In this document: piece by piece, positions 3,857-27,268 of the stretch
Layout of the letters: the number at the start of each line of letters is the position of its first letter
Numbering within the stretch: position 1 is the first letter of the stretch
Assembly (NCBI GenBank): GCA_964500855.1
Contig: CAZCQK010000002.1
Coordinates: 6,728 to 39,833 of the forward strand
Source of the DNA: an uncultured Candidatus Saccharibacteria bacterium
GTDB taxonomy: Bacteria > Patescibacteriota > Minisyncoccia > Phycocordibacterales > CAIRYW01
Direction of reading: 5' to 3'
DNA: 33,106 nucleotides
The notes under the pieces: model-generated
Told to the model about the DNA's origin: nothing
The model's database searches: none
What the model saw: only the letters and a program-made list of their open reading frames with translations
Program-made: the position numbers and the translations under genes

Positions 3857-4864
3857 TTACTTTGCCTGTGTTTCGAGAAACTTGAATACTTCCTCCTTGG
3901 TCAACACTTCTTCTACGAAACCGTATATCCTATCTTCTGGAGAACCTGGGTAGTGTTCGATCATGTGCTTCGCTTCATGCTCGATGTCTTCCTTTTTTGG
4001 TTCTAACTTTTCGGCGCGAGCAATCTCAAGAAGTATAAGTTCGCTCTCTGCTCTCTCCTTTGCTTTCTCCTTCCATTCTTCTTTCATGCCTTCTTCGGTC
4101 TTACCTGTATCCTTTCTGTACTGCTCGAGTGTGGCTCCCATCTGACCTAGTCTATGTGAGAACTCGTTCATCATTCTCTCGAGCTCATTCTCAATTAGAA
4201 TTTCTGGTACGTCTATTTTTGAATCTTTTCGTATTGCTTCTAGAGTCTCTATTCTTCTAGTCTCTCGGGCCTTGTACTCCTTTTCGTTTTTGAGATTTTC
4301 TTTGACCTTTGCTCGGAGCTCATCAACACTCTTAAAGTCTCCAAGCTTCTTAGCGAACTCATCATCTATTTCTGGATTCTCTATTCCTTCTGCTTGCTTG
4401 CGATGGTTCTTTAGTTCTTCAAACACCTGATCAACATCCTTGTCAGTAACTTCAGTGTCGATTTTTTTATCCATTGCCTTTGATGCAATTTTCTTATAGT
4501 CAGGAAGTTTTATTTCTGGCACAACAGTAGTTTGGATTGTTACTTCGACAGGAGCATTACGAGCAATTTTGGTTATTACGATTTTTGGATTACCGAGAAT
4601 CTTGAGATTGTTTTCGATTACTACTTTGGTATAGACGTCGCCTATCGCAAGTTGGGCTGCTTCTTCTAATATCACCATCTCACCGACTTTCTCGACCAAA
4701 ATCTTTTCTGGTACATGGCCTGGTCTAAACCCATCAAGCTTCGCATGCTCGCCAATTGATTTGACTGCCTTATCCCAGTTGGCTTCTATAGTCTCACTTG
4801 CTATCTCTACTTTGATTTCTACTATTGAACCTTCCTTCTTTTCTAATGATTTTACTGTATGCAT
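3857..4864 (-). CDS. tig: Trigger factor, short form lacking the PPIase domain
   Basis: N-terminal ribosome-binding signature GFRPGHVP. The C-terminal arm region (DDEFAKKLG..SVDELRAKVKENL) follows directly. Only 335 aa. Confidence 0.85.
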   Translation of the reverse strand: MHTVKSLEKKEGSIVEIKVEIASETIEANWDKAVKSIGEHAKLDGFRPGHVPEKILVEKVGEMVILEEAAQLAIGDVYTKVVIENNLKILGNPKIVITKIARNAPVEVTIQTTVVPEIKLPDYKKIASKAMDKKIDTEVTDKDVDQVFEELKNHRKQAEGIENPEIDDEFAKKLGDFKSVDELRAKVKENLKNEKEYKARETRRIETLEAIRKDSKIDVPEILIENELERMMNEFSHRLGQMGATLEQYRKDTGKTEEGMKEEWKEKAKERAESELILLEIARAEKLEPKKEDIEHEAKHMIEHYPGSPEDRIYGFVEEVLTKEEVFKFLETQAK

Positions 4865-7855: not shown

Positions 7856-10084
7856 ATGAAGTTAAAATATCTATTTAGCACATTCTTATTGGTTACCTCT
7901 GTTTGTTTTGGTCTATCTATTAATACTGTTTATGGGGCTGAATCAACAGACTCAATCAAGCCAGTTTTAAGTATTTCTGTATCTAATGTTAGGGTTTCTT
8001 CTAGTCAATATTCTAAGGGAGATACGATTGGTGGTAGCTTTGTGGTAACAAACAGAGACAATCACGATATAGATGGTCTCTCATTTAGGGTACAGATAGG
8101 AGCAAATTATAGCGAACCAGCAGCTGGTTATAAGTTTGCGGGGACTTTTTTGGATGTTTCAGCTAGACAGGGAGCTTTCTACCTAGCAAAAGGCCAGTCA
8201 AAAACCCTTAATTTTGAATATAAAATACCAGATTTCTTGAGTGGCAAGAACCTTGGGGTTGAGATTGCGGTACTTGCTTCAGATGGGAGGTTGATTGCTT
8301 GGGGAGACAGTGATTATTTCACAATTTCAGGTAATTCTAAGATTGTTTCTATCACTGATGCCTCACTTTTGCTTTCTAATGGTAAGAAATTCGGTTTAGG
8401 AGACGGTCCTACTATATATAGTGACAAGGATCCAAAGAGTATTGCTCTAAACCTCTCACTCAAGAACACTTCAGGTAAAGATGTTGTTATTACTCCGGTC
8501 TTGAGTAGTTATAGGCAAAATGACGCAAAATACGCAGTATCGAAAGAACTCACTAAAATTACCCTTGCTAAAGGCAAAACCTCTTCATTTAAGATTGATT
8601 TACCTGATCAGTCGTATGTTCCTGGCATATATTTCGCTGAGCTTGTACTCAAAGATGAGTCTGGTTCACAACTAGAATCTCGTATAGGTGCTAGGTATAT
8701 AGTAGGAGGTAATATTGCTGTTGTGCACAGTGCCAATGTAAGCAACGGTGTTCTAAATGTTAATGATAAGTTTAGTTTGGCTGTTGATTTGACTGGAAGG
8801 GCGCCAGATATAGGTGCTCTATTGGCGGGCAGTAAGCCTGAGGATTCTCCTAAGGGTAAAGTAAGTATTCAGATTTATAACGAAAGAAATGAGTTGGTTG
8901 CTGGGAGTGAAGAGGATTTCAATATTTTGGGTGATACGTTCATTCAGAAAGATTATTTCGCAAAGGTGGCTTCGAAGGCTCTCAGGTTACACATGGTTGT
9001 GACCGATGACTTTGGTAAGCAGATATTGGATTATTCAAAGGAATTGAGTCTAGATTATAAGACCAAAGCGGCAATGCCTTATGATGAGAGTGTTCAGTCG
9101 GTACCATACTATATTATAGTATCAGGGCTTATAGTGCTTGCTATTATCATGATACTTATACTGATACTCATGGTAAAAAGCAGGATTAGTCGAAAGCAAG
9201 GCATGATGGCTATTGTTGGAGTACTCTTAGCATCATCAATACCGCTTTCAACTCTTGCTGGATGTGAATCAGCTGGTGTGAGCTTCACTAGTATCTCTAC
9301 CCCATTTGATTATGAAAGATTTGGTCCTGGAGTGCTTCTATATACAAGTGGAGCGGTATCATATAACGCATGTGAAAACACACCTGCGGAAATAGATTCT
9401 CTTACTGTTACATTCCAAAATCAGACAGTAAATGCTAAACCTGTGGGAGGAAGCTGGTCTGTGGGTAGAACTGGAGGACATGGATGGTACCCTGTGGGAG
9501 CTATGTTTATGGCGGGACCACTACGTGTACCAACTGCTCCTGGTACTTATGTTATCAATTATTCTGTTAAGTACACTGCTGGAGCATGTAGTGGAACCGG
9601 TAATGCTGTGCGACATATCGTGGTGGAGCCGAGTGATAGTACAGGAGGATGTGGTGCAGGACAGTTTTATTGTGACGCCACTGGTTCGTGCATGACTAAC
9701 TCTGATCAAAGTAAGTGTAATGATACAGCTAAGTACACTCCATTTAAGATAAATTCAAATATCCCAGCTCTAAATGGGCCGGTGAAGCTAAGAGGAAGAC
9801 TGACAGCAAGACCTCCAATCGTTGATAAGGGCGATAGTTGTGTGATTGAGTGGGGGAATGACTTTAATTCTTATGATCAGTACACACTCTGTAAGTTTAC
9901 AGCACCAAACATATCACTAGAATTCAAACCTGGCGATGATGCGTCACCGACATCCACAGTAATAAATAACGTAAACAACGATATACCTTATCAAATGGTT
10001 TGTGGAGAGATTGATGGTCTGACTCCGTCTACCACAGATAATGGAGTGTGTAGATTAAACTGGAAATCAAAAGAAATTAATTAA
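7856..10084 (+). CDS. Large surface protein: signal peptide, three CARDB/Ig-like repeats, TM hairpin, cysteine-containing ectodomain, shared C-terminal domain
   Basis: Start at MKLKYLFSTFLLVTSVCFGLSINTVYGAES (signal peptide); the track ATG at 7805 is less likely. About three beta-sandwich-like segments of roughly 110 aa. TM helix YYIIVSGLIVLAIIMILILILMV, then KSRISRKQG, then a second hydrophobic segment ending in LAGC. The C-terminus is homologous to that of the 11225..13150 product. Confidence 0.8.
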   Translation: MKLKYLFSTFLLVTSVCFGLSINTVYGAESTDSIKPVLSISVSNVRVSSSQYSKGDTIGGSFVVTNRDNHDIDGLSFRVQIGANYSEPAAGYKFAGTFLDVSARQGAFYLAKGQSKTLNFEYKIPDFLSGKNLGVEIAVLASDGRLIAWGDSDYFTISGNSKIVSITDASLLLSNGKKFGLGDGPTIYSDKDPKSIALNLSLKNTSGKDVVITPVLSSYRQNDAKYAVSKELTKITLAKGKTSSFKIDLPDQSYVPGIYFAELVLKDESGSQLESRIGARYIVGGNIAVVHSANVSNGVLNVNDKFSLAVDLTGRAPDIGALLAGSKPEDSPKGKVSIQIYNERNELVAGSEEDFNILGDTFIQKDYFAKVASKALRLHMVVTDDFGKQILDYSKELSLDYKTKAAMPYDESVQSVPYYIIVSGLIVLAIIMILILILMVKSRISRKQGMMAIVGVLLASSIPLSTLAGCESAGVSFTSISTPFDYERFGPGVLLYTSGAVSYNACENTPAEIDSLTVTFQNQTVNAKPVGGSWSVGRTGGHGWYPVGAMFMAGPLRVPTAPGTYVINYSVKYTAGACSGTGNAVRHIVVEPSDSTGGCGAGQFYCDATGSCMTNSDQSKCNDTAKYTPFKINSNIPALNGPVKLRGRLTARPPIVDKGDSCVIEWGNDFNSYDQYTLCKFTAPNISLEFKPGDDASPTSTVINNVNNDIPYQMVCGEIDGLTPSTTDNGVCRLNWKSKEIN

Positions 10085-10085
10085 T

Positions 10086-11225
10086 ATGAAGTTAAGGTTA
10101 CCAAGAGTAAAGAATTTTTCGGAGGAGCGTTCGACTGAATTTGTATCCGCTTTAGCATTCTTTGCTTCTATTGGCGTTGCTTTATTACTTTCTTACGTTA
10201 AGACTCCTGATTACGTCAAATTATCTTTAGATTTAACATCTGGTAATTTTGCTGATGTTATCACCATGGCTGAGCAAGTTGTGTCTCGCAGACCTAATGA
10301 TCTGGACGCCGTACATTTATTGGTTGGAGCTTATCTTAGCGAATCCACTATCACAGGCAATCCAGTATGGAAAAATAAAGCAATAGCACTGATAAATAAA
10401 ACCCTCAGTAATTATCCAGATGATCCAGAAACATTGAGACAACAGGGGAGATATTACTTAATGTCTAATGCAACAAAACTTGCATTGAATTCTTACCAAA
10501 AGGCTTTGAGTCTAGATAACAACGACTCTAGGTCTTGGAGTGAGTTAGCGAATCTCTATCAAAATATTGGTGAATTTAGCCTCTCAAGATCTTTGGTTGT
10601 TAATGCTCTACGAATAAATCCAGCTGATAGTGTCGCTAGGGTAGCAGAGATTAGACAGAATTTCTTCGATAAAAAGACCGATCTGGCGGTTACTCAATCA
10701 TTAAATCTAGTTGGCACGAGTCATGATATCCTGGCGAAGGCTAGTGTTTATGAAATGCTTGGGTTAGATGCTTTAATGAATAACAACTTTGATGAGGCTG
10801 ATAAGTACTTCTCCCAATCAATAGGTATTAATCCTCAAATGCTTTTGTCACTTACGGGCAAGGCTTCAGCACTCGTTGGTAAGTATTTCAATGTTTCTCC
10901 AAGCAGAAGAGCTTCTGTATTGGCAGAAGCAAGTGATTTGGCTAACAAGGCAATTGCAATCAAACCTGATTATTCATTGGCATACTTGGTATTACAAAAG
11001 GTTGCTATTCTAAATAATGACAGCCATCAGGCAGAGATTTTAAAGGCTCAAATAATGAAGTCGTTAAAGACCGATACCTTAACGCCGATTACAATCAAAG
11101 AAAAGATAAACAACTCTTTAACTATTAAGCCCGTCACTAATTTTAAAGTTATTTCTATCAAGCAGATAACACCAGATTCCATTTCTGCTACCAGCACCAG
11201 AGTTATAATCCTAAAAAATAAGTAA
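10086..11225 (+). CDS. Membrane-anchored TPR-repeat protein
   Basis: N-terminal TM helix FVSALAFFASIGVALLLSYV, followed by multiple TPR-like 34-aa units (for example YQKALSLDNNDSRSWSELANLYQNIGEFSLSRSLVVNALRINP). The start lies 1 nt after the upstream stop. Confidence 0.8.
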   Translation: MKLRLPRVKNFSEERSTEFVSALAFFASIGVALLLSYVKTPDYVKLSLDLTSGNFADVITMAEQVVSRRPNDLDAVHLLVGAYLSESTITGNPVWKNKAIALINKTLSNYPDDPETLRQQGRYYLMSNATKLALNSYQKALSLDNNDSRSWSELANLYQNIGEFSLSRSLVVNALRINPADSVARVAEIRQNFFDKKTDLAVTQSLNLVGTSHDILAKASVYEMLGLDALMNNNFDEADKYFSQSIGINPQMLLSLTGKASALVGKYFNVSPSRRASVLAEASDLANKAIAIKPDYSLAYLVLQKVAILNNDSHQAEILKAQIMKSLKTDTLTPITIKEKINNSLTIKPVTNFKVISIKQITPDSISATSTRVIILKNK

Positions 11226-13150
11226 TGAACAAAAAATACATATTTTATATTCTCAGTTTTTTTGTTCTAATCACTTCTTTAGTTTTTGTTTCGAACGTTT
11301 TTGCTTGCAATGATCCTTATGCTTGCAATTATGATTACGATGATTATACGTCATGTAATTATGTGAGCTGTAATGACGGTAGCTGTGTTGGTAGTAGTCT
11401 TGAGTGTGCCCAATCTACATGTGAAGATCAGAGCATGATTACCTGTCCTGATGATGGTAGTTGTGCATTTAGCTATGCAAGCTGTCCATGTAGCTTTGGA
11501 GAGTCTAGGTGCGATGATTTAAATTGCTCAAGCAATTGCTCCGAGTCTAATTGTTCGTATTCTGGTAGGTATTACTGTCCTGACGGTACATGTGCTGATA
11601 GCGCAAATGATTGTGCGTGTACTCCTGACAGCACCAATGCCGACTGTATTGTTTATTATTGCGGCAGTCCTGGGGCATTAAATACCGATACTCTCGCCGG
11701 TTGCCAAGAAAAGAATCCAAACAAGAACTGTATACCATCAGATGGTTCTTGTGAGTATTGTACTCCTGACAGCACCAATGCCGACTGTATTGTTTATTAT
11801 TGCGGAGTATCGACTGCACTAAACTTTCAAACAAAAGCAGCATGTCAGGCGGCAAATAACAATATGAACTGTATCCAAGCTGACAATCATTGCCAATACT
11901 GTGATATAACAAGCAATGATCCTAGATGTATCGTCTATTTTTGTAACGATGAGACAGCTTTGAATAGTCAGAGTACTCTGGACTGTCAAGCAAATAATCC
12001 AAACAAGAACTGTCAGATTGATAATTCACTCTGCATGTATGACGGTGGACATACCGAGAAGTATTGTCCAACAGACCCAAACGAGCCAGCAAATTGTGAG
12101 AGTGATCCTAATAATCTTTGTGAGCCAGATAACTCAGTATGTCCTCTAACATTCTGTGGCTACGATGTTGTGGTTCAATATCAGAAATTAGATGTGATTT
12201 ATAATGTGGAGATTATCGCTGCTTATTTCTATGATGCAAACATAGAAAGCTGTGTGCCACCTAACAGTAATTATATCCAGCAAATTATTGCAGATACTTT
12301 AGATCCATTACCAACACCACCACCGAGCGCAACTACTGCTACTGGTGTGCCGATTACTCCGATAGTTGATCAGTGTCCAAACATATCCGGTAACCAAGAT
12401 TACGCTGAGTTTATTGATACTTACACACGAGATTCTAATGGTGATTGTATTATACCTGTCTGCCCTGATGGTGAGGAGTGGGATAAGAGTTCTAGAGGAT
12501 GTGTCGAGAGTAATCAGTTACATGTTGGAGCATGTAATGGTGCTCTTACGACTATATCTCCTAATGATGTTACTGTAGGAATGCCATTATCTAATAATAT
12601 TGGTTGTACTCGTGGTACAGGAGGACCTGTATCATTAACTTCAAATATAAACGGAGATCCGCTTTATGTGTGGCAGTGTGTTGATACAGGAGGATCGGTA
12701 AGTTGTAATGCTCCCGTAGGGCAGTGCCCTGCTAACACTACTTATTGCTATGGCACATGTGTTAGTGGTACATGTGAACCACCAGTGGATGATGGACCAA
12801 ACCAAGACCTCGGAGGACACGCGGGTCCAGTAGAACTCAATCCAAATCTCAAGGTTACACCAATCATTAATCCTGGAGGTACCTGCGTGGTTAGTTGGGG
12901 TAAGGATGCTTTCGGGGTTAATCAAGGTGTGTTCCTCAAATCAACAACCACAACCGTATGTACCTTCTCAGATCAGAAACAAACATTCTTCTCGTTTAAC
13001 GTTACTGATCCAACTGCTCCAACATCAAAGACCCAAACAAACGTGTTGAAGGATGAGAATTATATTCTCAAATGTTCTGAGCCTACGGGGGAAGTGGCTA
13101 CCTCGACAGGTTCGTGTAGGTTGAATGTCAAACCATCAGAGTTTAATTAG
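11225..13150 (+). CDS. Secreted cysteine-rich repeat protein with the shared C-terminal domain
   Basis: Signal/anchor YIFYILSFFVLITSLVFVSNVFA. Dense CxDGSC-type motifs. Three tandem 47-aa Cys repeats. A PTPPPS linker. The C-terminal 108 aa align with the tail of the 7856..10084 product. TAATG stop/start overlap with the TPR gene. Confidence 0.8.
   Translation: MNKKYIFYILSFFVLITSLVFVSNVFACNDPYACNYDYDDYTSCNYVSCNDGSCVGSSLECAQSTCEDQSMITCPDDGSCAFSYASCPCSFGESRCDDLNCSSNCSESNCSYSGRYYCPDGTCADSANDCACTPDSTNADCIVYYCGSPGALNTDTLAGCQEKNPNKNCIPSDGSCEYCTPDSTNADCIVYYCGVSTALNFQTKAACQAANNNMNCIQADNHCQYCDITSNDPRCIVYFCNDETALNSQSTLDCQANNPNKNCQIDNSLCMYDGGHTEKYCPTDPNEPANCESDPNNLCEPDNSVCPLTFCGYDVVVQYQKLDVIYNVEIIAAYFYDANIESCVPPNSNYIQQIIADTLDPLPTPPPSATTATGVPITPIVDQCPNISGNQDYAEFIDTYTRDSNGDCIIPVCPDGEEWDKSSRGCVESNQLHVGACNGALTTISPNDVTVGMPLSNNIGCTRGTGGPVSLTSNINGDPLYVWQCVDTGGSVSCNAPVGQCPANTTYCYGTCVSGTCEPPVDDGPNQDLGGHAGPVELNPNLKVTPIINPGGTCVVSWGKDAFGVNQGVFLKSTTTTVCTFSDQKQTFFSFNVTDPTAPTSKTQTNVLKDENYILKCSEPTGEVATSTGSCRLNVKPSEFN
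11618..12040 (+). repeat. 3 x 141-bp in-frame tandem repeat inside the cysteine-rich gene
   Basis: Repeat units start at 11618, 11759 and 11900. Units 1 and 2 share an identical 47-nt run (11618-11664 = 11759-11805). Unit 3 has diverged but keeps the Cys spacing. Confidence 0.85.
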
Positions 13151-13223: not shown

Positions 13224-14975
13224 ATGATCCTTAATGAAAAGCATTTAGCAGAATTTTTGGTGGACTCAGGTCTCGTTAGTAGAGCTGATGTTGACGTTGC
13301 TCGTAGTGACGCAGAAAAGAAAGGTATTGGTCTTGCTGAAATGCTTGTTTCGATGGGTAAGGTTGCAGAAGATGATATGAGGAGGGCTAATGCTTATGTT
13401 TTGGGTATGCCGTTTGTTGATTTGGCTTCTACTAAATTGGATTTTGATATCCTATCATTGATACCAGAACCTATTGCTCGCAAGCATAATATCATTGCTT
13501 ATAAGAAGAATGGTATGAATCTTGAGGTTGCTATGCTTGATATCACAGATCTAGAAGCAATAGACTTCGTAAAGAAAAAGACCGGATTTAAGATAATGCC
13601 AAGACTCACATCTGCTGAGTCTATGAAGAGTTCACTCTTGCAATACCAAAAGAGTCTCAAGGCCGATTTCGGTGATTTGATTCAAAAGGAATCAGCCAAG
13701 ATCACTGCTCTTTCTGAAGGTAAAGATGAAGATCAGAACGAGGATGATTTGAAGAAGATGGCAGAAGATTTGCCTGTGGTGCGTATCGTGGATACACTTT
13801 TGAAACACGCAATACTTCAAGATGCTTCTGATATTCATATTGAGCCTTATGAGAATGAGGTGATTGTTAGGTATAGAATAGACGGTCTTCTTCATGATGC
13901 GATGGTGTTGCCGAAAAATGCTGGAGCAGGAATAACCGCGAGAATAAAGGTGCTTTCCAATCTCAAGCTAGATGAGAAACGTTTACCGCAAGACGGTAGG
14001 TTTAAGATTGATATGGATGGTCAGAGGGTGGCATTTCGTGTATCAATACTCCCTACATACTTTGGTGAGAAGACTGTTATGCGATTACTTCGCGATAATG
14101 TTTCTGGGTTTTCACTTGAGTCGCTTGGATTTCATGGTGTGTCACTTGAGAGGCTTCATGAAGCAACGAGGCTTACAACCGGCATGATACTAACAACTGG
14201 TCCAACAGGTAGCGGTAAGACCACTACTCTCTATACACTTTTAGATATTCTAAATACGCCAGATGTGAATATCTCAACAGTAGAAGATCCGATTGAGTAT
14301 CAAATGAAGAGGGTAAATCAATCTCAAGTAAAGCCTGAAATCGGATTCACATTCGCTAATGGTCTACGCTCACTTGTGAGGCAGGACCCGGACGTAATCA
14401 TGGTGGGGGAGATTCGTGATAATGAGACAGCAAGTCTTGCTATTAATGCTGCACTCACTGGTCACTTGGTACTATCTACTCTTCACACCAATAGCGCGGC
14501 AGGTGCTATACCAAGACTTCTTGATATGCATGCCGAGACCTTCCTCCTGGTATCAACACTTAATGTGGTTATTGGTCAGAGATTGGTTAGAAGGCTCGAG
14601 AAGCCGAAGGATAAATACTTTTTATCTAAGGCTGAATTGGCTGAATTGGCAAAGAAAGTCGATGTTTCGAAGGTTCTTTCTACTTTGATTGAGGAAAACA
14701 TTGTGCCCAAAGATTCTGACTGGAGTAAGGTGCCGTTTTGGAAACCAAACCCAACAGCAGAATATGCTGACGGTTTCCACTCTCGAATTGGTATTCATGA
14801 AGTACTCAAAGTTACACCAACAATAAGAGAGATAATCATGAGGGGAGGGACATCTGATGATATAGAAGCGGAGGCGAAGAAAGAGGGGATGCTTACTATG
14901 ATTGAGGATGGAATAGTAAAGGCAGTGAAAGGGCTTACGACTATTGAGGAGGTTTTGCGAGTAATATCAGAGTAG
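13224..14975 (+). CDS. pilB: Type IV pilus assembly ATPase (GspE/PilB family)
   Basis: N-terminal GspE_N-like domain, Walker [22 protein letters not shown] Asp box and [12 protein letters not shown] His box. Confidence 0.9.
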
Positions 14976-14976
14976 C

Positions 14977-16179
14977 ATGAAATACAAGGTAAATTATAAA
15001 ACACCAGACGGCACTTTCGGGGATAGAAGTTTTGATGCTTCAGATAAGTATGCGCTTTTCAAGATTTTGAAGAAGGAAAACCTTGAACCTGTTAGTATTG
15101 TTGAACAAAAGAGTTTAGAAATAAACATCCCGTTTCTTCATAGTAAGGTTAAAACTTCAGAGAAAATATTTTTTGCTCGCAATCTTAGTGCCATGCTTAA
15201 TGCTGGGCTCGCACTTTCGAGAGCGCTTATGGTAATGGAGAAGCAGGCTAAAAATAAGAAGCTAAAAGAAGTTCTTGTTAAACTGAATGCATTCGTTACT
15301 GAAGGTAAGCCATTTCATGAAGGTATGGAGGCGTTTCCTGACACTTTCAATCAATTGTTTATCGCGATGGTTAAAGCGGGCGAGGAGAGTGGTTCTTTGA
15401 CAGAGTCTCTTTCAATTGTTGGTAATCAGTTGGATAAAAACTATGCCTTGGTAAAGCGCGTCAGAGGAGCGCTCATATATCCTGCAATCATTATTACTTT
15501 GATGATTGGTATTGGAATACTGATGCTTACTTATGTTGTGCCTTCGCTTACTCAGACTTTTGCTGACTTACATGCTGACTTACCAACATCTACCAAGATT
15601 ATTATTGCCACAAGCGATTTTCTTCAGAATCATTTTATTATCGCACTTGGACTTATTGTGGGGTTGGTTATTCTTGTTGCAACGTTTCTTAAGACCAAAA
15701 GAGGTCAGGTATTTCTTGATTGGATTGTAATCCACATGCCTTTAATATCTCCAATCGCGATTGAGACCAATACAGCCCGTACCGCAAGAACATTTTCTTC
15801 TCTACTGTCTGCTGGTGTGCCCGTGGTTAGATCTGCTGAAATTACTAAAGACGTTATTCAGAATTCATATTATAAGTTTATACTTGGTGAGACAGAGGCT
15901 GTGATAGAAAAGGGTCAGCCAATCTCTGAAGTGGTTGGTAGGTATCCTAAGTTGTATCCAGCATTCTTCGTTGAGATGATCTCGGTAGGTGAGGAGACAG
16001 GTAATCTAGCTTCTATGCTAAAACAGGTTGCGGATTATTATGAGAATGAAGTAGAACAAAGAACCAAGAACCTCTCTACTGTAATCGAACCGCTACTTAT
16101 GGTATTTATTGGTCTTGCTGTTGGATTCTTTGCTATATCTATGATTACTCCTATGTATACAGTTTTAAATAATATCTAA
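14977..16179 (+). CDS. pilC: Type IV pilus platform protein (GspF/PilC family)
   Basis: Two GspF repeats ([19 protein letters not shown].. and [17 protein letters not shown]..) and three TM segments. 400 aa. Confidence 0.9.
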
Positions 16180-16622
16180 TGAATAATAGAGGATTTTCAG
16201 CTCTAGAGATTATTATTACGATTTCAATCTCATTCATACTAACTGCTATATCAGTCTCTATGTTTTCTCGTCTAAGTAATAATACTTCACTCGATAAGGA
16301 TGCCAATATTGTGCTTTCTTATATAAGTAGAGCGAGAAGCGCGGCTATTGATTCTAAGGATGCATTGGCTCACGGAGTGAAGTTTGCTAGTACTACTGTT
16401 TATATATATTCTGGCACAACATACCCTGGCACCCATAGTGAAAGCTATAATCTGCTTTCTGGGGCTAACATTTCTTCGTTAAGTTTATCTAACAGATCAA
16501 CTTCTTTTTATTTCAATAAATTAACAGGTACCCCATCTGCTACTGGGACTGTCACAGTTAGTCGAAATGGTTCATCAAAAAGCATTATTATTTACGCCAC
16601 AGGTGTTTCTGAGATACAATAG
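16179..16622 (+). CDS. Type IV pilin/pseudopilin (class III signal peptide)
   Basis: MNNRG|FSALEIIITISISFILTAISV: G-1, F+1, E+5 and a hydrophobic helix. TAATG overlap with pilC. Confidence 0.8.
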   Translation: MNNRGFSALEIIITISISFILTAISVSMFSRLSNNTSLDKDANIVLSYISRARSAAIDSKDALAHGVKFASTTVYIYSGTTYPGTHSESYNLLSGANISSLSLSNRSTSFYFNKLTGTPSATGTVTVSRNGSSKSIIIYATGVSEIQ

Positions 16623-16633
16623 TATTAACAGAA

Positions 16634-17122
16634 GTGTCTTATATAAAATCTAAAAAATCTGGTGCAAGTTTGGTTGAGGTGGTTATCGCATCTTCGATAA
16701 TCAGCTTAACTCTTGTTACCCTGGTTACAATCTACAGTCTTGTTGCTAGATATTCGCTTAATAATGTTCGTAATCTAAAAGCTACCGCACTCGTTGAAGA
16801 AGAAGCAGAGGTATTGGGCTTTCTTAGGGATTCTGGTTGGACCAGAAACATTACTAGTCTAAGTAATAACACAACTTACCGACTCTATTGGAACGGTACC
16901 TCGTGGGTCGCATCTACCACTGCTCCATTACTTGAGAATCGATACGATGTTACTTTCATACTGTATCCTGTTTATAGGAATGCTAGTTTTAATGTTGTAA
17001 CTTCAGGAGGAACACTGGACACCGGAAGCAGGAAGGCCGTTTTGACTGTTTCTTGGAGAGAGAGTCATGCAACGACAACCAAAACAGCCGAAGTGTATTT
17101 ATTTAATATTGCTAACAACTAA
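16634..17122 (+). CDS. Minor pilin-like protein
   Basis: KKSG|ASLVEVVIASSIISLTLVTLV has a prepilin-like cleavage motif with E+5. GTG start as given in the ORF track. Confidence 0.65.
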   Translation: MSYIKSKKSGASLVEVVIASSIISLTLVTLVTIYSLVARYSLNNVRNLKATALVEEEAEVLGFLRDSGWTRNITSLSNNTTYRLYWNGTSWVASTTAPLLENRYDVTFILYPVYRNASFNVVTSGGTLDTGSRKAVLTVSWRESHATTTKTAEVYLFNIANN

Positions 17123-17640
17123 TGAAAAATTTAAATTCAAATAAAGGTTTCTCATTGGTTGAACTTATCACTTATACCGCACTACTTTCTATTCTTGTTG
17201 TGGTTATTACTAATGTGATTGTTATGCTTTATAACGCAAATGCCGTGGTAAAAGCAACAAGAAATGTTGAGAATTCGGCCATTACTGCAACAGATAAACT
17301 AATAAGAGAGATAAGAGCAGCTTCGTCAGTAGATCTGGTAAACTCTTCTTTAAATAATGATAATGGAATACTGAAGTTAAATATCTCCGATTCATCTGGT
17401 TCTAGAACTTCTAGATTTTATATTCAGAATAATCGAATTATGATTGACGATAATGATGTACAGACTGGTCCACTTACAATATCTGATACTATCGTGTCTT
17501 CTCTTAGGTTTTATTATCTCGCAACAACAACATCCAAGGCAGTTAAATTCGAGATGACTCTTGTTGGACCACCCTCAACCCCTGGAATTAGTGAAAAGTA
17601 TTATGGCACGACCGTTCTTAGAGGATCATACGTTCAATAA
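17122..17640 (+). CDS. Minor pilin-like protein
   Basis: NSNKG|FSLVELITYTALLSILVVVI is a canonical prepilin N-terminus. TAATG overlap with the upstream gene. Confidence 0.75.
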   Translation: MKNLNSNKGFSLVELITYTALLSILVVVITNVIVMLYNANAVVKATRNVENSAITATDKLIREIRAASSVDLVNSSLNNDNGILKLNISDSSGSRTSRFYIQNNRIMIDDNDVQTGPLTISDTIVSSLRFYYLATTTSKAVKFEMTLVGPPSTPGISEKYYGTTVLRGSYVQ

Positions 17641-19478
17641 TGAAAACAAAATCATCAAAAAATAGAGGTCAGGTAGTAATCTTAACTGTGATATTTTTCC
17701 TAATCATTTCTGTTACTGTCATTGCTGCGGTCGTTATTCCAACAGCAAATCAAGTTAGATCTGTTACAGAGCTTTTGAGAGCAAAGCAGGGATATATGGC
17801 TGCTGATTCTGTGAATGAAGACGCTTGGTATAGACTAAGTCTTAACAAAACCTTACCTTCTACAATGACCTTGCCTTTTGCGACTCCGGTATCTACTTCG
17901 GCAACTGTCACATCATCGAGTGGGTCTGTTTCTATTAAGACTACTGGAGCTGATGGTTCTACCGTGAGACTTGCTCAAAGCACTTTCTCAGCCGGTCAAT
18001 CAGTCGGATTTCCGTATGCTCTCCAGACTGGTACAGGAGGAATATCGCTTACAGGAGGTGCTCACATAACTGGAGATGTTTACACTAATGGAAGCATTAC
18101 TTCTGATTCTTCTGGACCATATATAACAGGTTCTGCTGTTGCAGCTAATAATGCTTCAGCCTATATTGACCAAACAAATGGTTATGCCGATGGCACAACA
18201 CCTCTTACAATGAGTATTGGTATTAATGCTTCTTCTCAGGATGCATCACAGAGCTTTCAGGTAACGACCGGAAGTCTACCGATGACTGCTATAAGGCTTT
18301 ATATGAAGAAGTTTGGTTCACCAGCTAATTTGACTGTTCGCATAGTATCTGACAATGCTGGATCGCCAGGAGGTAGCGCTCTTTGGTCAGGTACTTTGAA
18401 CGCTAGTCTAGTGACCACTAATTTTACCTATATTACTTTAAATGTTTCTCCATCGCTTACCTTAACTCCGAATACTAAGTATTGGATTGTGTTTGATTCC
18501 AGTACCGCTAGTTCAGCTAAATATTATGTTACTGCCATGACCAACAATGCTTACTCATATGGGGTAGCAAAGCTTAGTTCTGGGTGGAATAGTACGAATG
18601 GAGGTACGTGGAGTACTGTATCACCAAGTACAGGGGACGCTTATTTTGATATTTTCTTAGGTGGCCTTCCAAATAAAATAAGTGGTGCTAGTCAGTACCA
18701 AAGAGTGTTAGTCGGTACAGCAGGGACTGGATTTGCTTGGGCAGATGAGATTGATAGCGCGACTTTGTATGGGACGGGCTACTGCTTTGCTAGTAATTAT
18801 ATGTATAACAGCGGTGGTACTTCTAAGTACTGTGATGAATCACGTTCAAATCCAACCCCAGCAACATATCCAATCTCTGATACCCAAATAACAGGTTGGA
18901 AGAATCTAGCGAGCGCAGGTTGGACTTATAACGGTAACCTGACTTTGGGAGGAGGTATAAGCACAACAACTGGAGCACTCAAAATAAATGGTAATTTAAC
19001 TTTGGGAGGAGGAGCTACGCTTTCTATTACCGCTCCAGTTTGGGTTACTGGATATATTGATCTAGAGGGAGGAAGTAAGATTAAGGTACCTTCATCAGCT
19101 GGGACTAGTGGTGGCATAATTATTGCTGACGGTAGGATATTCGTCGGAGGAGGATCTGACTTTAGAGGCTCAGGTACAGCAGGGAGCTACATGATGGCTA
19201 TTTCCAATTCACTTTGCCCTTATAGTGGTACCTGCTCTGGTAATGGTAGCGGGAATGCGATAGATATCGAGGGAGGATCAGGCTCCGTTATATTGGTTGC
19301 ATTAAATGGTAAGGTATCTATTCAAGGAGGAGCACAGGCTAATGACGTTGTGGCTAAGCAGATATGGGTGGATGGTGGGTCTTCGGTAGTTTATGATCCG
19401 AATCTTGTTGGACCGAGCTTTGTGGGCGCTTCTTCTGGTTCGTGGAAGGTGGGAAGTTGGGGTGAGGTGTCTGATTAA
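17640..19478 (+). CDS. Large PilX-like pilus-associated protein with a G/S/T-rich repetitive C-terminal region
   Basis: N-terminus KNRGQVVILTVIFFLIISVTVIAAVV resembles PilX_N, with no E+5. The C-terminal third has periodic GG-containing strands (LTLGGGISTTTG, LTLGGGATLSI, IDLEGGSKIKV, IFVGGGSDF, IDIEGGSGSV, SIQGGAQAN, VDGGSSVVY), which suggests a beta-helix. Confidence 0.7.
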   Translation: MKTKSSKNRGQVVILTVIFFLIISVTVIAAVVIPTANQVRSVTELLRAKQGYMAADSVNEDAWYRLSLNKTLPSTMTLPFATPVSTSATVTSSSGSVSIKTTGADGSTVRLAQSTFSAGQSVGFPYALQTGTGGISLTGGAHITGDVYTNGSITSDSSGPYITGSAVAANNASAYIDQTNGYADGTTPLTMSIGINASSQDASQSFQVTTGSLPMTAIRLYMKKFGSPANLTVRIVSDNAGSPGGSALWSGTLNASLVTTNFTYITLNVSPSLTLTPNTKYWIVFDSSTASSAKYYVTAMTNNAYSYGVAKLSSGWNSTNGGTWSTVSPSTGDAYFDIFLGGLPNKISGASQYQRVLVGTAGTGFAWADEIDSATLYGTGYCFASNYMYNSGGTSKYCDESRSNPTPATYPISDTQITGWKNLASAGWTYNGNLTLGGGISTTTGALKINGNLTLGGGATLSITAPVWVTGYIDLEGGSKIKVPSSAGTSGGIIIADGRIFVGGGSDFRGSGTAGSYMMAISNSLCPYSGTCSGNGSGNAIDIEGGSGSVILVALNGKVSIQGGAQANDVVAKQIWVDGGSSVVYDPNLVGPSFVGASSGSWKVGSWGEVSD

Positions 19479-22582: not shown

Positions 22583-24292
22583 ATGAAACATTACGGTGTG
22601 AGAGAAAGGATTGATAATGCTACTGCTTCAAAGCTCAGCGACTATTCTGGCGTTCTCGCTAACTTGTTATTCCAAAGAGGCATTTTAGATAATAAAGAGG
22701 CGGAGCTATTTCTAAATATTGGTTATGATAACAATCTCCACGACCCGTTTTTGATACATGATATGAAGATTGCTTCAGAGCGAATAATTGAAGCAATCAA
22801 ACTGGATCAAAAGATTGCTATCTATTCTGATTATGATGCTGATGGGATACCGGGAGGAGTAGTGCTCCACGACTTTTTCAAAAAAATTGGGTTCTCAAAT
22901 TTTTTAAATTATATACCTGATAGGAGTGAAGAAGGGTTCGGACTCAACAAAGAAGCGCTCACGTCACTTAAAGCGAAAGGGGTAGAGCTCATTATTACTG
23001 TTGATTGTGGTACTTCGGAGGTCGAGAATGTGGAATTCGCAAATCGTCTAGGACTCGAAGTTATAATAACAGATCATCACAATGCTCCAGATGTTTTGCC
23101 CAATGCACTTGCCATAGTGAATCCAAAGCTCTCGATAGAGTATCCTTTCCCCATGCTTTGTGGAGCGGGAGTGGCATTCAAGCTCGTCCAAGCAATACTC
23201 GCAACAGACCGTTTCGGACTAAAAGATGGCGAGGAGAAGTGGCTTTTGGATATGGTTGGTATCGCAACACTCTCTGACATGGTGCCTCTCATAGGTGAGA
23301 ATAGGGTCTTGGCTACTTATGGACTCAAGGTGTTGCGCAAGAGTCGGAGGGTGGGATTAAGGAGATTATTTCAAAAGCTAAAGATTGATCAGAATAATAT
23401 TACTGAGGATGATGTGGGGTTTATGATTACTCCGAGGATAAATGCTGCTAGTCGAATGGGAGTATCTTATGATGCATTTAATTTACTCACAACCTGTAGC
23501 GCGGAGGAAGCGGATGAGTTGGTCAACAAGCTTGAGAAAGTAAATAAAGAACGAAAGGGTACGACGGCTTTCTTGGTGAAGGAGGTTAAGAAGCATATTG
23601 AAGCAAAGTATTCTCCATACTTTCAAAATAAAATAATTGTTGCTGGAGATCCTGCTTGGAAACCATCACTTCTTGGGCTCGTTGCCAATACTCTCGCATC
23701 AGAAGCATCGAAGCCGGTGTTCCTCTGGGGGCGCGATGGAGTCCAAGAGAATCTGAAGGGTTCTTGCAGGTCTGTTGGTTCTATATCAGTGACTGAGCTC
23801 ATGACTTCTGTGAGCCCTGGAATATTTACTGAGTATGGAGGGCACCATCTAGCGGGAGGATTCTCTGTTTCTTACGAATCAATTCATTTACTCGAAGATG
23901 AATTATCAAGGGTTTATGAGAAGCTGTCTATTGTGGATGAGAGATTGGAGAGCTTGGTAGATGACGTGCTTACGGTAGCCGATATCAATGAAGGGTTTAT
24001 GAGGGATATTGATAAGCTAGCGCCGTTTGGTACAGGTAATCCAAAGCCACTGTTTTTGATTAGTGAAGCAGATGTTATCTCGGTGTCACCATTTGGTAAG
24101 ACCAAGGAGCATCTCAAAATAATATTAAAGGATGCTTCTAATCGAGAGGTAGAAGCGGTAGCATTCTTCGCTCCGAAGGAACTCTTTGATAAGTCTATTG
24201 GTAGAGATAAGTTATCGATAGTTGGTAATGTGGAGCGGTCGTCATTCTTGGGTCGTAAGAGCATCCGTATACGCATAGAGGATATCGTTTAA
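22583..24292 (+). CDS. recJ: Single-stranded-DNA-specific exonuclease RecJ
   Basis: DHH-family motifs IYSDYDADG, TVDCG and ITDHH, plus a DHHA1-like GGHHLAGG motif. Confidence 0.9.
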   Translation: MKHYGVRERIDNATASKLSDYSGVLANLLFQRGILDNKEAELFLNIGYDNNLHDPFLIHDMKIASERIIEAIKLDQKIAIYSDYDADGIPGGVVLHDFFKKIGFSNFLNYIPDRSEEGFGLNKEALTSLKAKGVELIITVDCGTSEVENVEFANRLGLEVIITDHHNAPDVLPNALAIVNPKLSIEYPFPMLCGAGVAFKLVQAILATDRFGLKDGEEKWLLDMVGIATLSDMVPLIGENRVLATYGLKVLRKSRRVGLRRLFQKLKIDQNNITEDDVGFMITPRINAASRMGVSYDAFNLLTTCSAEEADELVNKLEKVNKERKGTTAFLVKEVKKHIEAKYSPYFQNKIIVAGDPAWKPSLLGLVANTLASEASKPVFLWGRDGVQENLKGSCRSVGSISVTELMTSVSPGIFTEYGGHHLAGGFSVSYESIHLLEDELSRVYEKLSIVDERLESLVDDVLTVADINEGFMRDIDKLAPFGTGNPKPLFLISEADVISVSPFGKTKEHLKIILKDASNREVEAVAFFAPKELFDKSIGRDKLSIVGNVERSSFLGRKSIRIRIEDIV

Positions 24293-24313
24293 TATTTGTG
24301 CAATAATAGGAGC

Positions 24314-25030
24314 ATGTCTAAGGCTTTGATATTTACTGATGGTTCATCGAGAGGTAATCCTGGATTGGGAGGGTATGGTGCTATTGTGTGTTATAAGAAT
24401 GAGAAGGGTAAGATGGTTCGAGAGCTTGGAGGCTTTGAGAAGAGCACTACCAACAATCGTATGGAGATGACTGCTGTTATAGAAGCATTGGTGTTTGCCA
24501 AAGAAAGTGGAGCGGACGAGATTTTGTTATTTACTGATTCGGAATATGTGAAGAAAGGGGCGACGGAATGGGCCTATGGATGGGCATCAAATAATTGGAA
24601 GACTAAGGCCAACATGCCCGTACTCAATCAAGATTTATGGCAGAAAATGTTAGTGCTTGTTGGGTCTCTAGATGTTACGTTCAAGGTTATACCTGGGCAC
24701 TTTGGTATCGCTGGTAATGAGAGGTGTGATGTTATCGCAACATCATTTGCGGATAGTAAGCCCACACCATTATTTAATGGAGCTTTTGATGATTATAAGG
24801 TGAGTCTCGAAGTCGACGTAAGTCATGGGAGCCTTAGTCAGCCCAAGGTTATGCGAAGCAAATCTGCCAAGGCATATTCTTATGTTAGTGAAGTCGGGGG
24901 TGAGGTCAGAGTCCATAAGACTTGGGCCGATTGCGAGAGTAGGGTGAAGGGAAAGCGAGGTGCACGTTACCGCAAGGCGCTCAGTAAGAATGAAGAACTA
25001 AGTTTAATAGATGAGTTCTCCAAATACTAA
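24314..25030 (+). CDS. rnhA: Ribonuclease HI with a C-terminal hybrid-binding (Cauli_VI-like) domain
   Basis: RNase H core: FTDGSSRGNPGLGGYG, NNRMEMTAVIEAL, TDSEYV. The C-terminal AYSYVSEVGGEVRVHKTWADCESRVKGKRGARYRKALSKNEE matches the pattern of the RNase H1 N-terminal/viroplasmin domain. ATG 24314 preferred over TTG 24296. Confidence 0.85.
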   Translation: MSKALIFTDGSSRGNPGLGGYGAIVCYKNEKGKMVRELGGFEKSTTNNRMEMTAVIEALVFAKESGADEILLFTDSEYVKKGATEWAYGWASNNWKTKANMPVLNQDLWQKMLVLVGSLDVTFKVIPGHFGIAGNERCDVIATSFADSKPTPLFNGAFDDYKVSLEVDVSHGSLSQPKVMRSKSAKAYSYVSEVGGEVRVHKTWADCESRVKGKRGARYRKALSKNEELSLIDEFSKY

Positions 25031-26516
25031 TTATTTTTATTCTGTTGTTTTAGGATTTATTCTTGGTATTGCCCTTGGAAGTTTGGGACTACTTACTTCT
25101 CTATATACTTTGGTTTTGGTTATATGTGTTGGTGTGTTTTGCTTCCTATTGCTTCATAGCAAGGTAAAGGCGAGACCCAAAGCCCATATAATACTCATGC
25201 TGACTGTGGCTCTCGGCTTTGCTTCGCTTGGTGCTATGAGAGTAGGGGACTTTAATAAGGTAAAGGATTTGAGATTTGATGGAGAAGTCGGTAGTCACAT
25301 CAAAGTTCTTGGTACTCTAAAGGATGATTATGATGCGAGAGATCGGAGCTTGATTGTTACGATGGAGGCTTATGAAGTAAACGGAGAAGTCTTTGATACA
25401 CAGAGAACGGATGTGATAGTTAAGTCAGAAGTTTCTGATTTGAGATTTGGGCAGAGGGTGCTATTTGATGGAGTGCTTGAGAGGCCCAAGAATTTTGATA
25501 ATAAATTTGATTATGTGAGTTATCTCAATAAGCAAGGTATAAGGTATGTATTGAATGATGCACACCTAATCAAAGCAAAGGAACGCACTCTAAATATCTA
25601 TTCAATACTTTTTGATACAAAGAAATGGTTCATCCATAATATTGAGAAGTTAGTGCCTGAGCCGGAGAGTGCGCTTGCTTTGGGAGTGACTATTGCTGGT
25701 AAAGGTTTGTTACCTAGTGATGTTAAAAATGACTTTGTTAATGCGGGGCTTATTCACGTGGTGGTGCTTTCTGGATATAACGTATCTCTAGTTATACAGG
25801 CTATGCTTCGGTCCCTGTGGTTTCTCGGGAGGAGGGCGAGAGTTGTGGGTGCGCTTATTGGAGTCATGGTGTTTGTGATTATTGTGGGTGCGAGTGCGCC
25901 CGTACTACGCTCTGCTATTATGGCGAGCATTGTGCTTATTGGCGCATTGAGTTATACCAAGGTGGCTCAAAACAGAGCGCTGTTTGTTACTCTATGCATC
26001 ATGATGCTTTCTAATCCACTTGTTATACTTGATGCCTCATTTATTCTTTCTTTTCTTGCTACGTTTGCGATTGTGAATGTTGTGCCTGTTATCACCCCTT
26101 TGCTTTCTAGAGTGACGAGTAGATTTAAAATCAAAGAGACTTTAGCAGAGACTCTTGCTACTCAGTTATTCGTCGCACCTTACTTACTATTCGCATTGGG
26201 TAGGGTATCACTTATTGCGCCTCTATCTAATCTAGTCATACTACCCATGATACCTAGTATTATGATGCTTACGTTTGGCCTCAGTCTTATTTACTTTATC
26301 CCTCTCATCTCTACTTTGACTGCCGGAGCTTTATTTATTGTTTGCTTTCTAGTTATTCGGCTTGTTGGATTATTTGCTTCAATACCGCTTTCTTCTATTG
26401 CTTTTAGTATTAACTTTTGGTTGATGGCAATGATATACATTATATACCTCGTCTTTATTTATATGATAAACAGAAGAAGGTTGCATACCAAAAGCAAAGT
26501 AGTAACATTAGGTTAG
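25011..26516 (+). CDS. comEC: ComEC/Rec2 DNA-uptake channel: OB (DUF4131-like) and competence domains only
   Basis: N-terminal TM helices, an OB-like soluble segment, and a polytopic competence domain with GLIHVVVLSGYNVSLV. There is no beta-lactamase domain. It overlaps the rnhA 3' end by 20 nt. Confidence 0.85.
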   Translation: MSSPNTNYFYSVVLGFILGIALGSLGLLTSLYTLVLVICVGVFCFLLLHSKVKARPKAHIILMLTVALGFASLGAMRVGDFNKVKDLRFDGEVGSHIKVLGTLKDDYDARDRSLIVTMEAYEVNGEVFDTQRTDVIVKSEVSDLRFGQRVLFDGVLERPKNFDNKFDYVSYLNKQGIRYVLNDAHLIKAKERTLNIYSILFDTKKWFIHNIEKLVPEPESALALGVTIAGKGLLPSDVKNDFVNAGLIHVVVLSGYNVSLVIQAMLRSLWFLGRRARVVGALIGVMVFVIIVGASAPVLRSAIMASIVLIGALSYTKVAQNRALFVTLCIMMLSNPLVILDASFILSFLATFAIVNVVPVITPLLSRVTSRFKIKETLAETLATQLFVAPYLLFALGRVSLIAPLSNLVILPMIPSIMMLTFGLSLIYFIPLISTLTAGALFIVCFLVIRLVGLFASIPLSSIAFSINFWLMAMIYIIYLVFIYMINRRRLHTKSKVVTLG

Positions 26517-27223: not shown

Positions 27224-27250
27224 ATGGTTTGCTTAGTTTCTAATTTGATA

Positions 27251-27264
27251 AGTATTATAATACT
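27251..27264. promoter_or_regulatory. Palindromic AGTATTATAATACT carrying a TATAAT on both strands
   Basis: A 14-bp perfect palindrome between divergent sod and the MBL gene. The plus-strand TATAAT at 27256-27261 is 7 nt from the ATG at 27269. Confidence 0.5.
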
Positions 27265-27268
27265 TCTT

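Follow-up and report, generated by a model that had tools for sequence, protein, structure and literature searches.

Results

Two surface proteins encoded beside a pilus operon share a C-terminal module

We analyzed a stretch of DNA of 33,106 nucleotides (hereafter the window) from an uncultured Candidatus Saccharibacteria bacterium (assembly GCA_964500855.1, contig CAZCQK010000002.1, positions 6,728 to 39,833), in which two otherwise dissimilar open reading frames (ORFs), A and B, encode predicted surface proteins with a common C-terminal tail. The window is chromosomal, with genes for NusA, trigger factor, pyrophosphatase, deformylase, TIM, PGK, RecJ, RNase H, ComEC, and SOD. The genes of interest lie in the order A, TPR, B, PilB, PilC, three prepilins, a 612-aa pilin-like protein, TIM, and PGK (Table 1). 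The TPR gene begins 1 nt past the stop codon of A, and its own stop codon overlaps the start of B.

Table 1. Features of the A-TPR-B and pilus genes in the window
Feature	Position (nt)	Strand	Basis
Gene A, 742 aa	7856..10084	+	Translation, AlphaFold2, orthologue alignment; public gene call of the same 742 aa
Four-Cys mini-domain of A, residues 597-621	9644..9718	+	Onset of the BLASTP alignment
Predicted FN3/Ig-like beta-sandwich of the A tail, residues 630-736	9743..10063	+	AlphaFold2, Foldseek, alignment
Free C-terminal peptide K-S-K-E-I-N of A, with stop codon	10064..10084	+	Glu at -3, terminal Asn
TPR protein, 379 aa, membrane-anchored	10086..11225	+	Pfam TPR_2, TPR_1, TPR_19
Gene B, 641 aa	11225..13150	+	Translation, Cys counts and transmembrane scan of relatives, orthologues
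Shared module of B, residues 499-641: Cys-knot, type 2 beta-sandwich, K-P-S-E-F-N	12719..13150	+	BLASTP, subfamily profile
Perfect 20-bp hairpin and T-run directly after the B stop codon	13150..13193	+	Terminator scan; -30.7 kcal/mol
PilB-type assembly ATPase	13224..14975	+	Pfam T2SSE (7e-118), with MshEN
PilC-type platform protein	14977..16179	+	Pfam T2SSF (8e-56)
Three small prepilin-like genes	16179..16622, 16634..17122, 17122..17640	+	N_methyl, GspH, and NCBIfam matches
612-aa protein, choice-of-anchor R domain	17640..19478	+	NF041539 (3e-13)

When the full proteins were compared by BLASTP, a single significant segment was returned, between residues 597-742 of A and 499-641 of B (30% identity, E = 3e-10), and nothing aligned in the rest of the two proteins. 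A profile of the two tails, run against the six-frame translation of the window, found two copies, in A and B only. The likeness of the two tails is therefore confirmed as far beyond chance. Translation reproduced the coordinates and sequences given for both ORFs in the original prediction, and the blocks it had listed as conserved, namely four Cys residues, WG.D, CRLN, and a stop directly after E-[IF]-N, were all present in both tails. The domain had been described as about 100 aa long; a tail is indeed shared, but that start is too late, and the module begins approximately 35 residues further upstream.

The shared module comprises about 145 residues with a total of eight Cys. It opens, at nt 9644 in A and nt 12719 in B, with a four-Cys mini-domain (Cys-knot) of the pattern G-C-x2-G-x-[YF][YF]-C-x4-5-C-x6-8-C, whose residues C599, C606, C612, and C621 are invariant among 19 aligned A- or C-type proteins (see below). 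The beta-sandwich that follows in A holds a further four invariant Cys together with W, T, R, and N, and the protein finishes with a short free peptide.

The tail defines a small, undescribed family with a fixed C-terminus

When 1.84 billion cluster representatives (50% identity clusters) were scanned exhaustively with HMMER, the tail family came to 32 protein clusters at E ≤ 1e-3, of which 23 had E ≤ 1e-10. The match finishes on the last residue of the protein in all 32 library matches and in both window copies, and the extreme C-terminal placement first noticed in the window is common to 33/33 family members. The consensus end is C-R-[LIV]-N-x4-E-x-N-COOH, with Asn as the terminal residue in 32 of the 33 sequences and His in the other, and the distance from the last Cys to the protein end is always exactly 10 residues. 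Four Cys, T48, R104, N106, and E111 are invariant in the 33-sequence alignment, while W37, F41, F61, P63, D80, and N113 are nearly so. One orthologue of A, in locus L001, ends EVP and falls outside the E-x-N rule. A further A-like protein of 874 aa (L003, 4866..7490) carries a diverged tail ending C-T-K-N-P-N-L-I-E-I, which the hidden Markov model (HMM) of the tail matched at E = 0.075. From this match we judge that the family probably has members too diverged for the detection threshold, and in L003 the terminal-Asn rule is not absolute.

No family in Pfam-A or NCBIfam was matched by the window tails, or consistently by the 33 tails, even at E ≤ 1; the only hits were noise, such as Lantibiotic_a in five of the 33 tails at E of 0.03 or worse. 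Among PDB sequences there was no match to the tails either, and the label "unrecognized domain" stood against all three collections. Word-indexed homology searches recovered only a fragment of the window's own B with the two-tail profile and nothing with the 33-tail profile, and a metagenome scan with a closer subset of tails yielded a single locus. In the literature searched there was no description of the tail domain or of the A-TPR-B unit. The family is undescribed and lineage-restricted, and it bears a clear, testable motif that may serve recognition.

Three architectures and two tail subfamilies

The related loci come from metagenome-assembled genomes of Patescibacteria labelled Paceibacterota, Saccharibacteria, or Patescibacteria group. 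Twelve of them are independent (the window, L001, L002, L004, L007, L009, L011, L012, L013, L015, L016, and L017); L006 and L010 are identical in sequence to L009, and L018 to L017. Copy numbers were read from loci of ≤22 kb. The carriers are of three architectures. A-type proteins (about 750-1100 aa) consist of a signal peptide, a beta-sandwich ectodomain, a transmembrane hairpin, a middle sandwich, the Cys-knot, and the tail. C-type proteins (about 250-290 aa) are a stand-alone C-terminal half of A with an N-terminal anchor, and B-type proteins (about 580-850 aa) combine a signal peptide, a Cys-rich region, and a conserved middle region with the Cys-knot and tail. Membrane topologies were deduced from hydrophobicity and charge. 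In all complete carriers the N-terminus bears a hydrophobic signal and the C-terminus is free of transmembrane segments, and none of the proteins looks cytoplasmic, which agrees with the initial view of secreted proteins without a transmembrane tail. A described family, or a mostly internal or cytoplasmic occurrence, had been expected to argue against a sorting or docking role; the tails belong to no described family and are placed neither internally nor in cytoplasmic proteins.

In A itself, the signal peptide is followed by three beta-sandwiches (residues about 40-400), the transmembrane hairpin (helices 417-441 and 446-459), the middle sandwich (475-590), the Cys-knot, and the tail. Because other genomes encode the portion beyond the hairpin as a protein of its own, of about 280 aa (C type), A resembles two membrane-anchored ectodomain proteins fused into one. 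Positions 9104..9262 of the window (A residues about 417-469) encode this internal hairpin and then a lipobox-like L-A-G-C.

B has a signal peptide, 58 Cys, three 47-aa repeats, the conserved middle region, the Cys-knot, and the tail, without a membrane anchor, and its orthologues were found in L001, L004, L007, L011, L012, and L015. Across the B-type proteins the number of Cys ranges from 44 to 84. Disulfide-forming enzymes are enriched in these bacteria (PMC6744442), and the Cys content of the B type is consistent with oxidized extracellular proteins. The tandem Cys-rich repeats (B residues about 132-272, window about 11618..12040) follow the pattern C-T-P-D-S-T-N-A-D-C-I-V-Y-Y-C-G...A-L-N...C-Q...N-C...C-x-Y and have no Pfam match. 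A second shuffled module, a small Cys-containing domain of the pattern G-x-C-G...C-x-x-G...Y-x-W-x-C...G-G...C-x-A, stands just ahead of the Cys-knot in B-type and some A-type proteins (B residues about 436-497, nt about 12530..12715; inserts in P0017, P0023, and P0028).

The tails themselves fall into two subfamilies, type 1, which ends NW.Y.E[VI]N and sits on A and C, and type 2, which ends E[FY]N and sits on B. Subfamily HMMs scored tails of their own type at about 126-172 bits versus about 46-86 bits for the other type; the tail of B, for example, scored 149 bits with the type 2 HMM versus 65 bits with type 1. One type 1 and one type 2 tail are present in each of six pilB-linked loci, and in L013 a type 1 tail is paired with a divergent tail ending EFN. 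Where a locus has both subtypes, the E[FY]N tail sits on the gene adjoining pilB. The idea that subtype tracks gene position rather than architecture was set aside as weak, as it depends on P0032 of L013, which is nearly equidistant from the two subfamilies (49 vs 56 bits).

All carriers are extracytoplasmic, and surface proteins of monoderms often carry a wall-binding module at the C-terminus. The sandwich and its peptide could therefore be imagined to bind peptidoglycan, a wall polymer, or the S-layer non-covalently. We consider this highly improbable: the tails resemble none of the wall-binding families, SLH, LysM, CWB, and GW included, the A and C types are already membrane-anchored, and an anchor of general use should be found on far more surface proteins than the two per locus.

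The conserved terminal peptide lies outside the predicted fold

AlphaFold2 modelled the A tail, from the 33-sequence alignment, as an eight-stranded beta-sandwich with a predicted local distance difference test score (pLDDT) of 92.8 and a predicted TM score (pTM) of 0.82. The last strand stops at C-R-L, the next eight residues are coil, and the final three have a pLDDT of about 51. In the model of full-length A (pLDDT 78, 19-sequence alignment), residues 739-742 fall below 50. Foldseek matches of the A tail to the PDB were all FN3/Ig at the top but weak (best E = 2.9e-3, TMq ≤0.52, 10-18% identity), so that the fold class, as modelled, is clearly generic FN3/Ig without a specific family. Full-length A matched only macroglobulin- or complement-like strings of sandwiches, at TM scores of 0.1-0.2. 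Neither set of structural matches was informative as to function. Disulfide pairing and surface exposure were deduced, and R104 and N106 of the last strand are probably surface-exposed.

Docking of the terminal peptide on its own chain was rejected because its pLDDT stays <50 in full-length A, and a CnaB-like intramolecular Lys-Asn isopeptide was set aside because the domain has no invariant Lys. A Thr-based ester bond is conceivable, T48 being invariant. Since the conserved Glu and Asn sit where AlphaFold2 cannot place them, the conservation of the peptide is not explained by the monomer fold or by same-chain contacts.

A more modest possibility is that the tail has no specific function, being an Ig-like spacer spread by duplication in one gene cluster, with a terminal motif that serves folding or stability only, for instance through a salt bridge of E111 or the carboxylate with R104. 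The FN3/Ig fold is generic, A is built largely of such sandwiches, and the invariant R104 could indeed pair with E111. However, spacers are not confined to the last residue in 33/33 proteins of three architectures, the exact distance of 10 residues from Cys to end would be unexpected, the terminal peptide was not placed even in full-length A, and two conserved subfamilies co-occur with one of each per locus. On account of its terminal position, fixed end distance, invariant but unplaced peptide, and two co-occurring subtypes, a passive spacer is very unlikely.

Tail genes are paired and mostly adjoin a TPR gene and a pilus operon

The order [A or C]-TPR-B-PilB-PilC was found in the window, L001, L004 (with two TPR genes), and L007. 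It was also found in L015, although two ORFs there make up the split TPR gene, and in L011 it holds up to the contig end, which lies within pilC. Other loci depart from it. L013 has the order TPR-C-A-PilB; the short contig of L009 reads TPR-C-TPR before it ends; and L016 reads A-A'-TPR-like ORF up to the contig end, with A' interrupted by an assembly gap. In L002 (9902..15000) and L017 (7277..12409), which represent a Saccharibacteria-labelled clade, two tandem A-type genes lie between TGT and UvrB.

Two complete tail genes were present in nine of the 12 loci (the window, L001, L004, L007, L011, L013, L015, L002, and L017), and L016 probably carries two as well. Paired tail genes adjoin each other, or only TPR genes intervene. 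A TPR gene adjoins a tail gene in 8/12 loci (the window, L001, L004, L007, L009, L011, L012, and L013), and a TPR-like ORF belongs to the cluster in two more, split in L015 and cut by the contig end in L016. Where enough downstream sequence is available, pilB-pilC and prepilin genes follow, and the placement beside an assembly machine that had been pointed out in the window recurred in most loci as an adjoining PilB/PilC/prepilin operon.

The 10 TPR proteins that were aligned, from seven loci, all have a basic N-terminus and one transmembrane helix. By the positive-inside rule, the TPR domain is predicted to face outward, on the side of the membrane where the tails would lie. One Lys and two Arg are nearly invariant in these 10 orthologues. 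A word-indexed homology search with the TPR protein returned only itself and generic TPR proteins.

The original prediction had compared the tail to the C-terminal domain (CTD) of type IX secretion system (T9SS) cargo and to PEP-CTERM. In a secretion or sorting role of this kind, the PilB/PilC/pseudopilin machine, acting like a type II secretion system, or a sortase-like enzyme would recognize the sandwich and terminal peptide, and A and B would be exported through the wall or S-layer or attached to it, with the tail possibly removed as in the T9SS CTD. An Ig-like sandwich of about 100 aa at the extreme C-terminus does share position and fold class with the T9SS CTD, a type IV filament machine adjoins in most loci, and in RgpB the last residues of the CTD are critical. 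Against this stand the absence of any HMM match to Por_Secre_tail or another sorting-signal family, the absence of a peptidase or sortase gene from the cluster, and the nature of Patescibacteria, which have no outer membrane or secretin. The A-type carriers are, moreover, already membrane-embedded, and the L002/L017 clade has no secretion machine nearby. Nor is there diverse cargo, the carriers numbering at most two per locus. The analogy gave way on these grounds: in a family of 32 clusters and three architectures, with ≤2 copies per locus in one gene cluster and no sortase or peptidase, a general sorting signal is disfavored, and we regard it as unlikely.

A-TPR-B may be transcribed apart from the pilus genes

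The hairpin after B lies in the 73-nt gap between B and PilB. Strong hairpins occur 3ʹ of B in four of the eight loci examined (the window, L001, L011, and L012), and a TATAAT-like box, GATATAAT/GTTATAAT, stands roughly 10-20 nt before the pilB start, where this start is visible, in 8/8 loci examined. The hairpin is likely a terminator or attenuator. As it follows B and a -10-like box precedes pilB, A-TPR-B looks like its own transcription unit, which suggests that it is transcribed separately from pilB-pilC-pilins, or attenuated.

In the prepilins, class III signal peptides of the form G|F-S-x-x-E can be read, and the 612-aa protein has a pilin-like hydrophobic N-terminus without Glu5. The first pilin of the operon had been noted to end GVSEIQ, similar to the tails. 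It does end so, but the likeness is loose, and its orthologues drift to GVIDRN and GVIDIQ. The end G-[VI]-S-E-I-Q of pilin 1 is present in the window and L001. The C-terminus W-[GS]-E-V-x-x of the 612-aa protein is kept in L001 and L012, the window copy ending WGEVSD. Acidic-aliphatic ends on several products of the cluster may or may not be meaningful.

Given a GspH-like prepilin, two more small prepilin-like proteins, and a large pilin-like protein directly downstream, the tail might anchor A and B to a minor-pilin tip complex, in the manner of the PilY1 C-terminal domain seated on minor pilins, and the two proteins would then be adhesins presented by the pilus. The Cys-rich B with its variable N-terminus resembles many adhesins in this respect, and pilin 1 and the 612-aa protein have the acidic-aliphatic ends SEIQ and WGEVSD. 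However, the A and C types are integral membrane proteins that could not travel on a pilus tip, the C-terminal motifs of the pilins are not conserved in the same way as those of the tails, and no pilins lie near the tail genes of L002/L017. Docking at the pilus tip therefore appears quite unlikely.

Genes for DNA uptake and processing lie just downstream of the cluster, namely RecJ (22583..24292), RNase H (24296..25030), and ComEC with DUF4131 (25011..26516), and a separate metallo-beta-lactamase ORF is located at 27224..28123. The pilus cluster may serve competence. Elsewhere in the window, the trigger factor gene (3857..4864, - strand) encodes 335 aa with Trigger_N and Trigger_C matches and no peptidyl-prolyl isomerase (PPIase) domain detected between them.

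Discussion

A proposed docking module for a cell-surface complex

Our preferred reading, to which we give about an even chance, is that the tail is an operon-specific, extracellular module for protein-protein docking or assembly. Such a module, made up of the four-Cys mini-domain, the presumably disulfide-bonded FN3/Ig-like beta-sandwich, and the free six-residue C-terminal peptide, would join A or C and B into one cell-surface complex beside the pilus machine. The membrane carrier would be the A or C type, held by its transmembrane hairpin or N-terminal anchor, and the complex would retain on the cell the Cys-rich B, which is secreted and has no anchor of its own. Recognition would center on the exposed C-terminal peptide and its alpha-carboxylate.

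Two partners for this peptide can be proposed, and we judge them roughly equally likely. The outward-facing TPR protein might clamp it, as Hop clamps EEVD-COOH and PEX5 clamps SKL-COOH; this is plausible because TPR domains are classic binders of C-terminal peptides and the TPR gene of the window is packed between those of its putative clients. Alternatively, the partner might be the other tail, in a reciprocal tail-tail contact through the last-strand Arg and Asn, which are invariant and probably surface-exposed; this is plausible because tail pairs persist where there is no TPR gene, and R104 and N106 could act as a receptor.

Several observations weigh against docking in this form. L012 has the order TPR-B-PilB without an A or C gene, and its single tail gene does not fit an obligatory heterotypic pairing. 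In L002 and L017/L018 neither a TPR gene nor pilB was found within 10 kb, so that adjacency to both is not universal, and the two tails of these loci are both type 1. Conservation among the TPR proteins is poor: the positions that are invariant across the 10 orthologues mostly belong to the structural TPR consensus, and no conserved carboxylate clamp could be identified in that alignment. Low pLDDT is also common at chain ends and is weak evidence alone. Docking and the identity of the partner are both what we infer from the patterns described above.

A broader version of the docking idea is doubtful but of wider interest. In it, the docking system would build the extracellular part of the type IV filament machine in monoderm, ultrasmall Patescibacteria, with E-x-N-COOH captured by the TPR protein, the paired tail, or both, and would tether the hypervariable B and the A array at the pilus base. 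If this were true, the complex would functionally replace, in a lineage-specific manner, the alignment, pilotin, and secretin layer, and might mediate host contact or DNA capture. A large part of bacterial diversity belongs to the Patescibacteria, whose members live attached to other microbes and rely on DNA uptake and type IV pili. No secretin layer like that of diderms is present in their pilus machines.

Whichever partner is involved, the tail family connects the beta-sandwich protein in the membrane with the secreted, Cys-rich one and, in most loci, with a TPR protein predicted to face outward and the pilB operon. Its invariant free C-terminal peptide offers a testable handle on the assembly of surface complexes in Patescibacteria. 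The reach of the finding is limited to a rare family (32 clusters), so far confined to uncultivated lineages.

Comparison with known systems

T9SS CTD and PEP-CTERM tag many different cargo proteins per genome. The T9SS CTD of Bacteroidota resembles the tail: it is an Ig-like sandwich of ~80-100 residues placed at the very end of exported proteins, and its last residues are functionally important. However, the tails match none of PF18962, TIGR04183, and TIGR04131, the hosts are monoderm Patescibacteria without a T9SS, each locus has ≤2 carriers where T9SS has tens of cargo, and the tail has eight Cys and an E-x-N-COOH end. Sortase and exosortase signals (LPXTG, PEP-CTERM, GlyGly-CTERM, and PGF-CTERM) do not describe it either, as no C-terminal hydrophobic segment was found in the 32 proteins, which have a polar x4-E-x-N end.

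TPR domains are the classic binders of free C-terminal peptides, as in Hop and CHIP with EEVD-COOH and PEX5 with the PTS1 signal SKL-COOH. A short, length-fixed, acidic C-terminus and a TPR protein encoded between its putative clients recall these receptors, as well as the TPR pilotins and partners of envelope machines (PilF/PilW/Tgl, TadD, and BamD). The differences are that clamp residues are not identifiable here, that there is no secretin or outer membrane, and that one clade has no TPR neighbor. Dockerins, too, are C-terminal modules that plug dissimilar secreted proteins into an anchored scaffold, in type-specific pairs. The tail shares with the dockerin-cohesin system a small C-terminal module common to otherwise dissimilar secreted proteins, but dockerins are Ca-binding, EF-hand-like helical repeats borne by many enzymes per genome and have no sequence relation to the tails.

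Among filament machines, Pfam and profile annotation of the window revealed no secretin, and Patescibacteria lack a Gram-negative envelope and PilQ (PMC6744442). The C-terminal domain of PilP is reported to bind the N0 domain of PilQ (PMC11525922). A resembles PilP and the HR domain of GspC as a membrane-anchored accessory of a filament machine with a C-terminal beta-sandwich that would dock, and its second half has the lipobox-like LAGC; unlike these proteins, neither A nor B has a PilP or GspC Pfam match, and one of the tail's carriers is secreted and rich in Cys. PilY1 is reported to be a non-pilin encoded with minor pilins that joins the pilus machine through its C-terminal domain (PMC7541494, PMC11525922). 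That domain differs from the tail in being a seven-bladed beta-propeller, and the A and C carriers here are membrane-embedded. The module belongs to none of these groups by sequence profile; by analogy, its mode of action would come closest to that of C-terminal docking domains in envelope machines.

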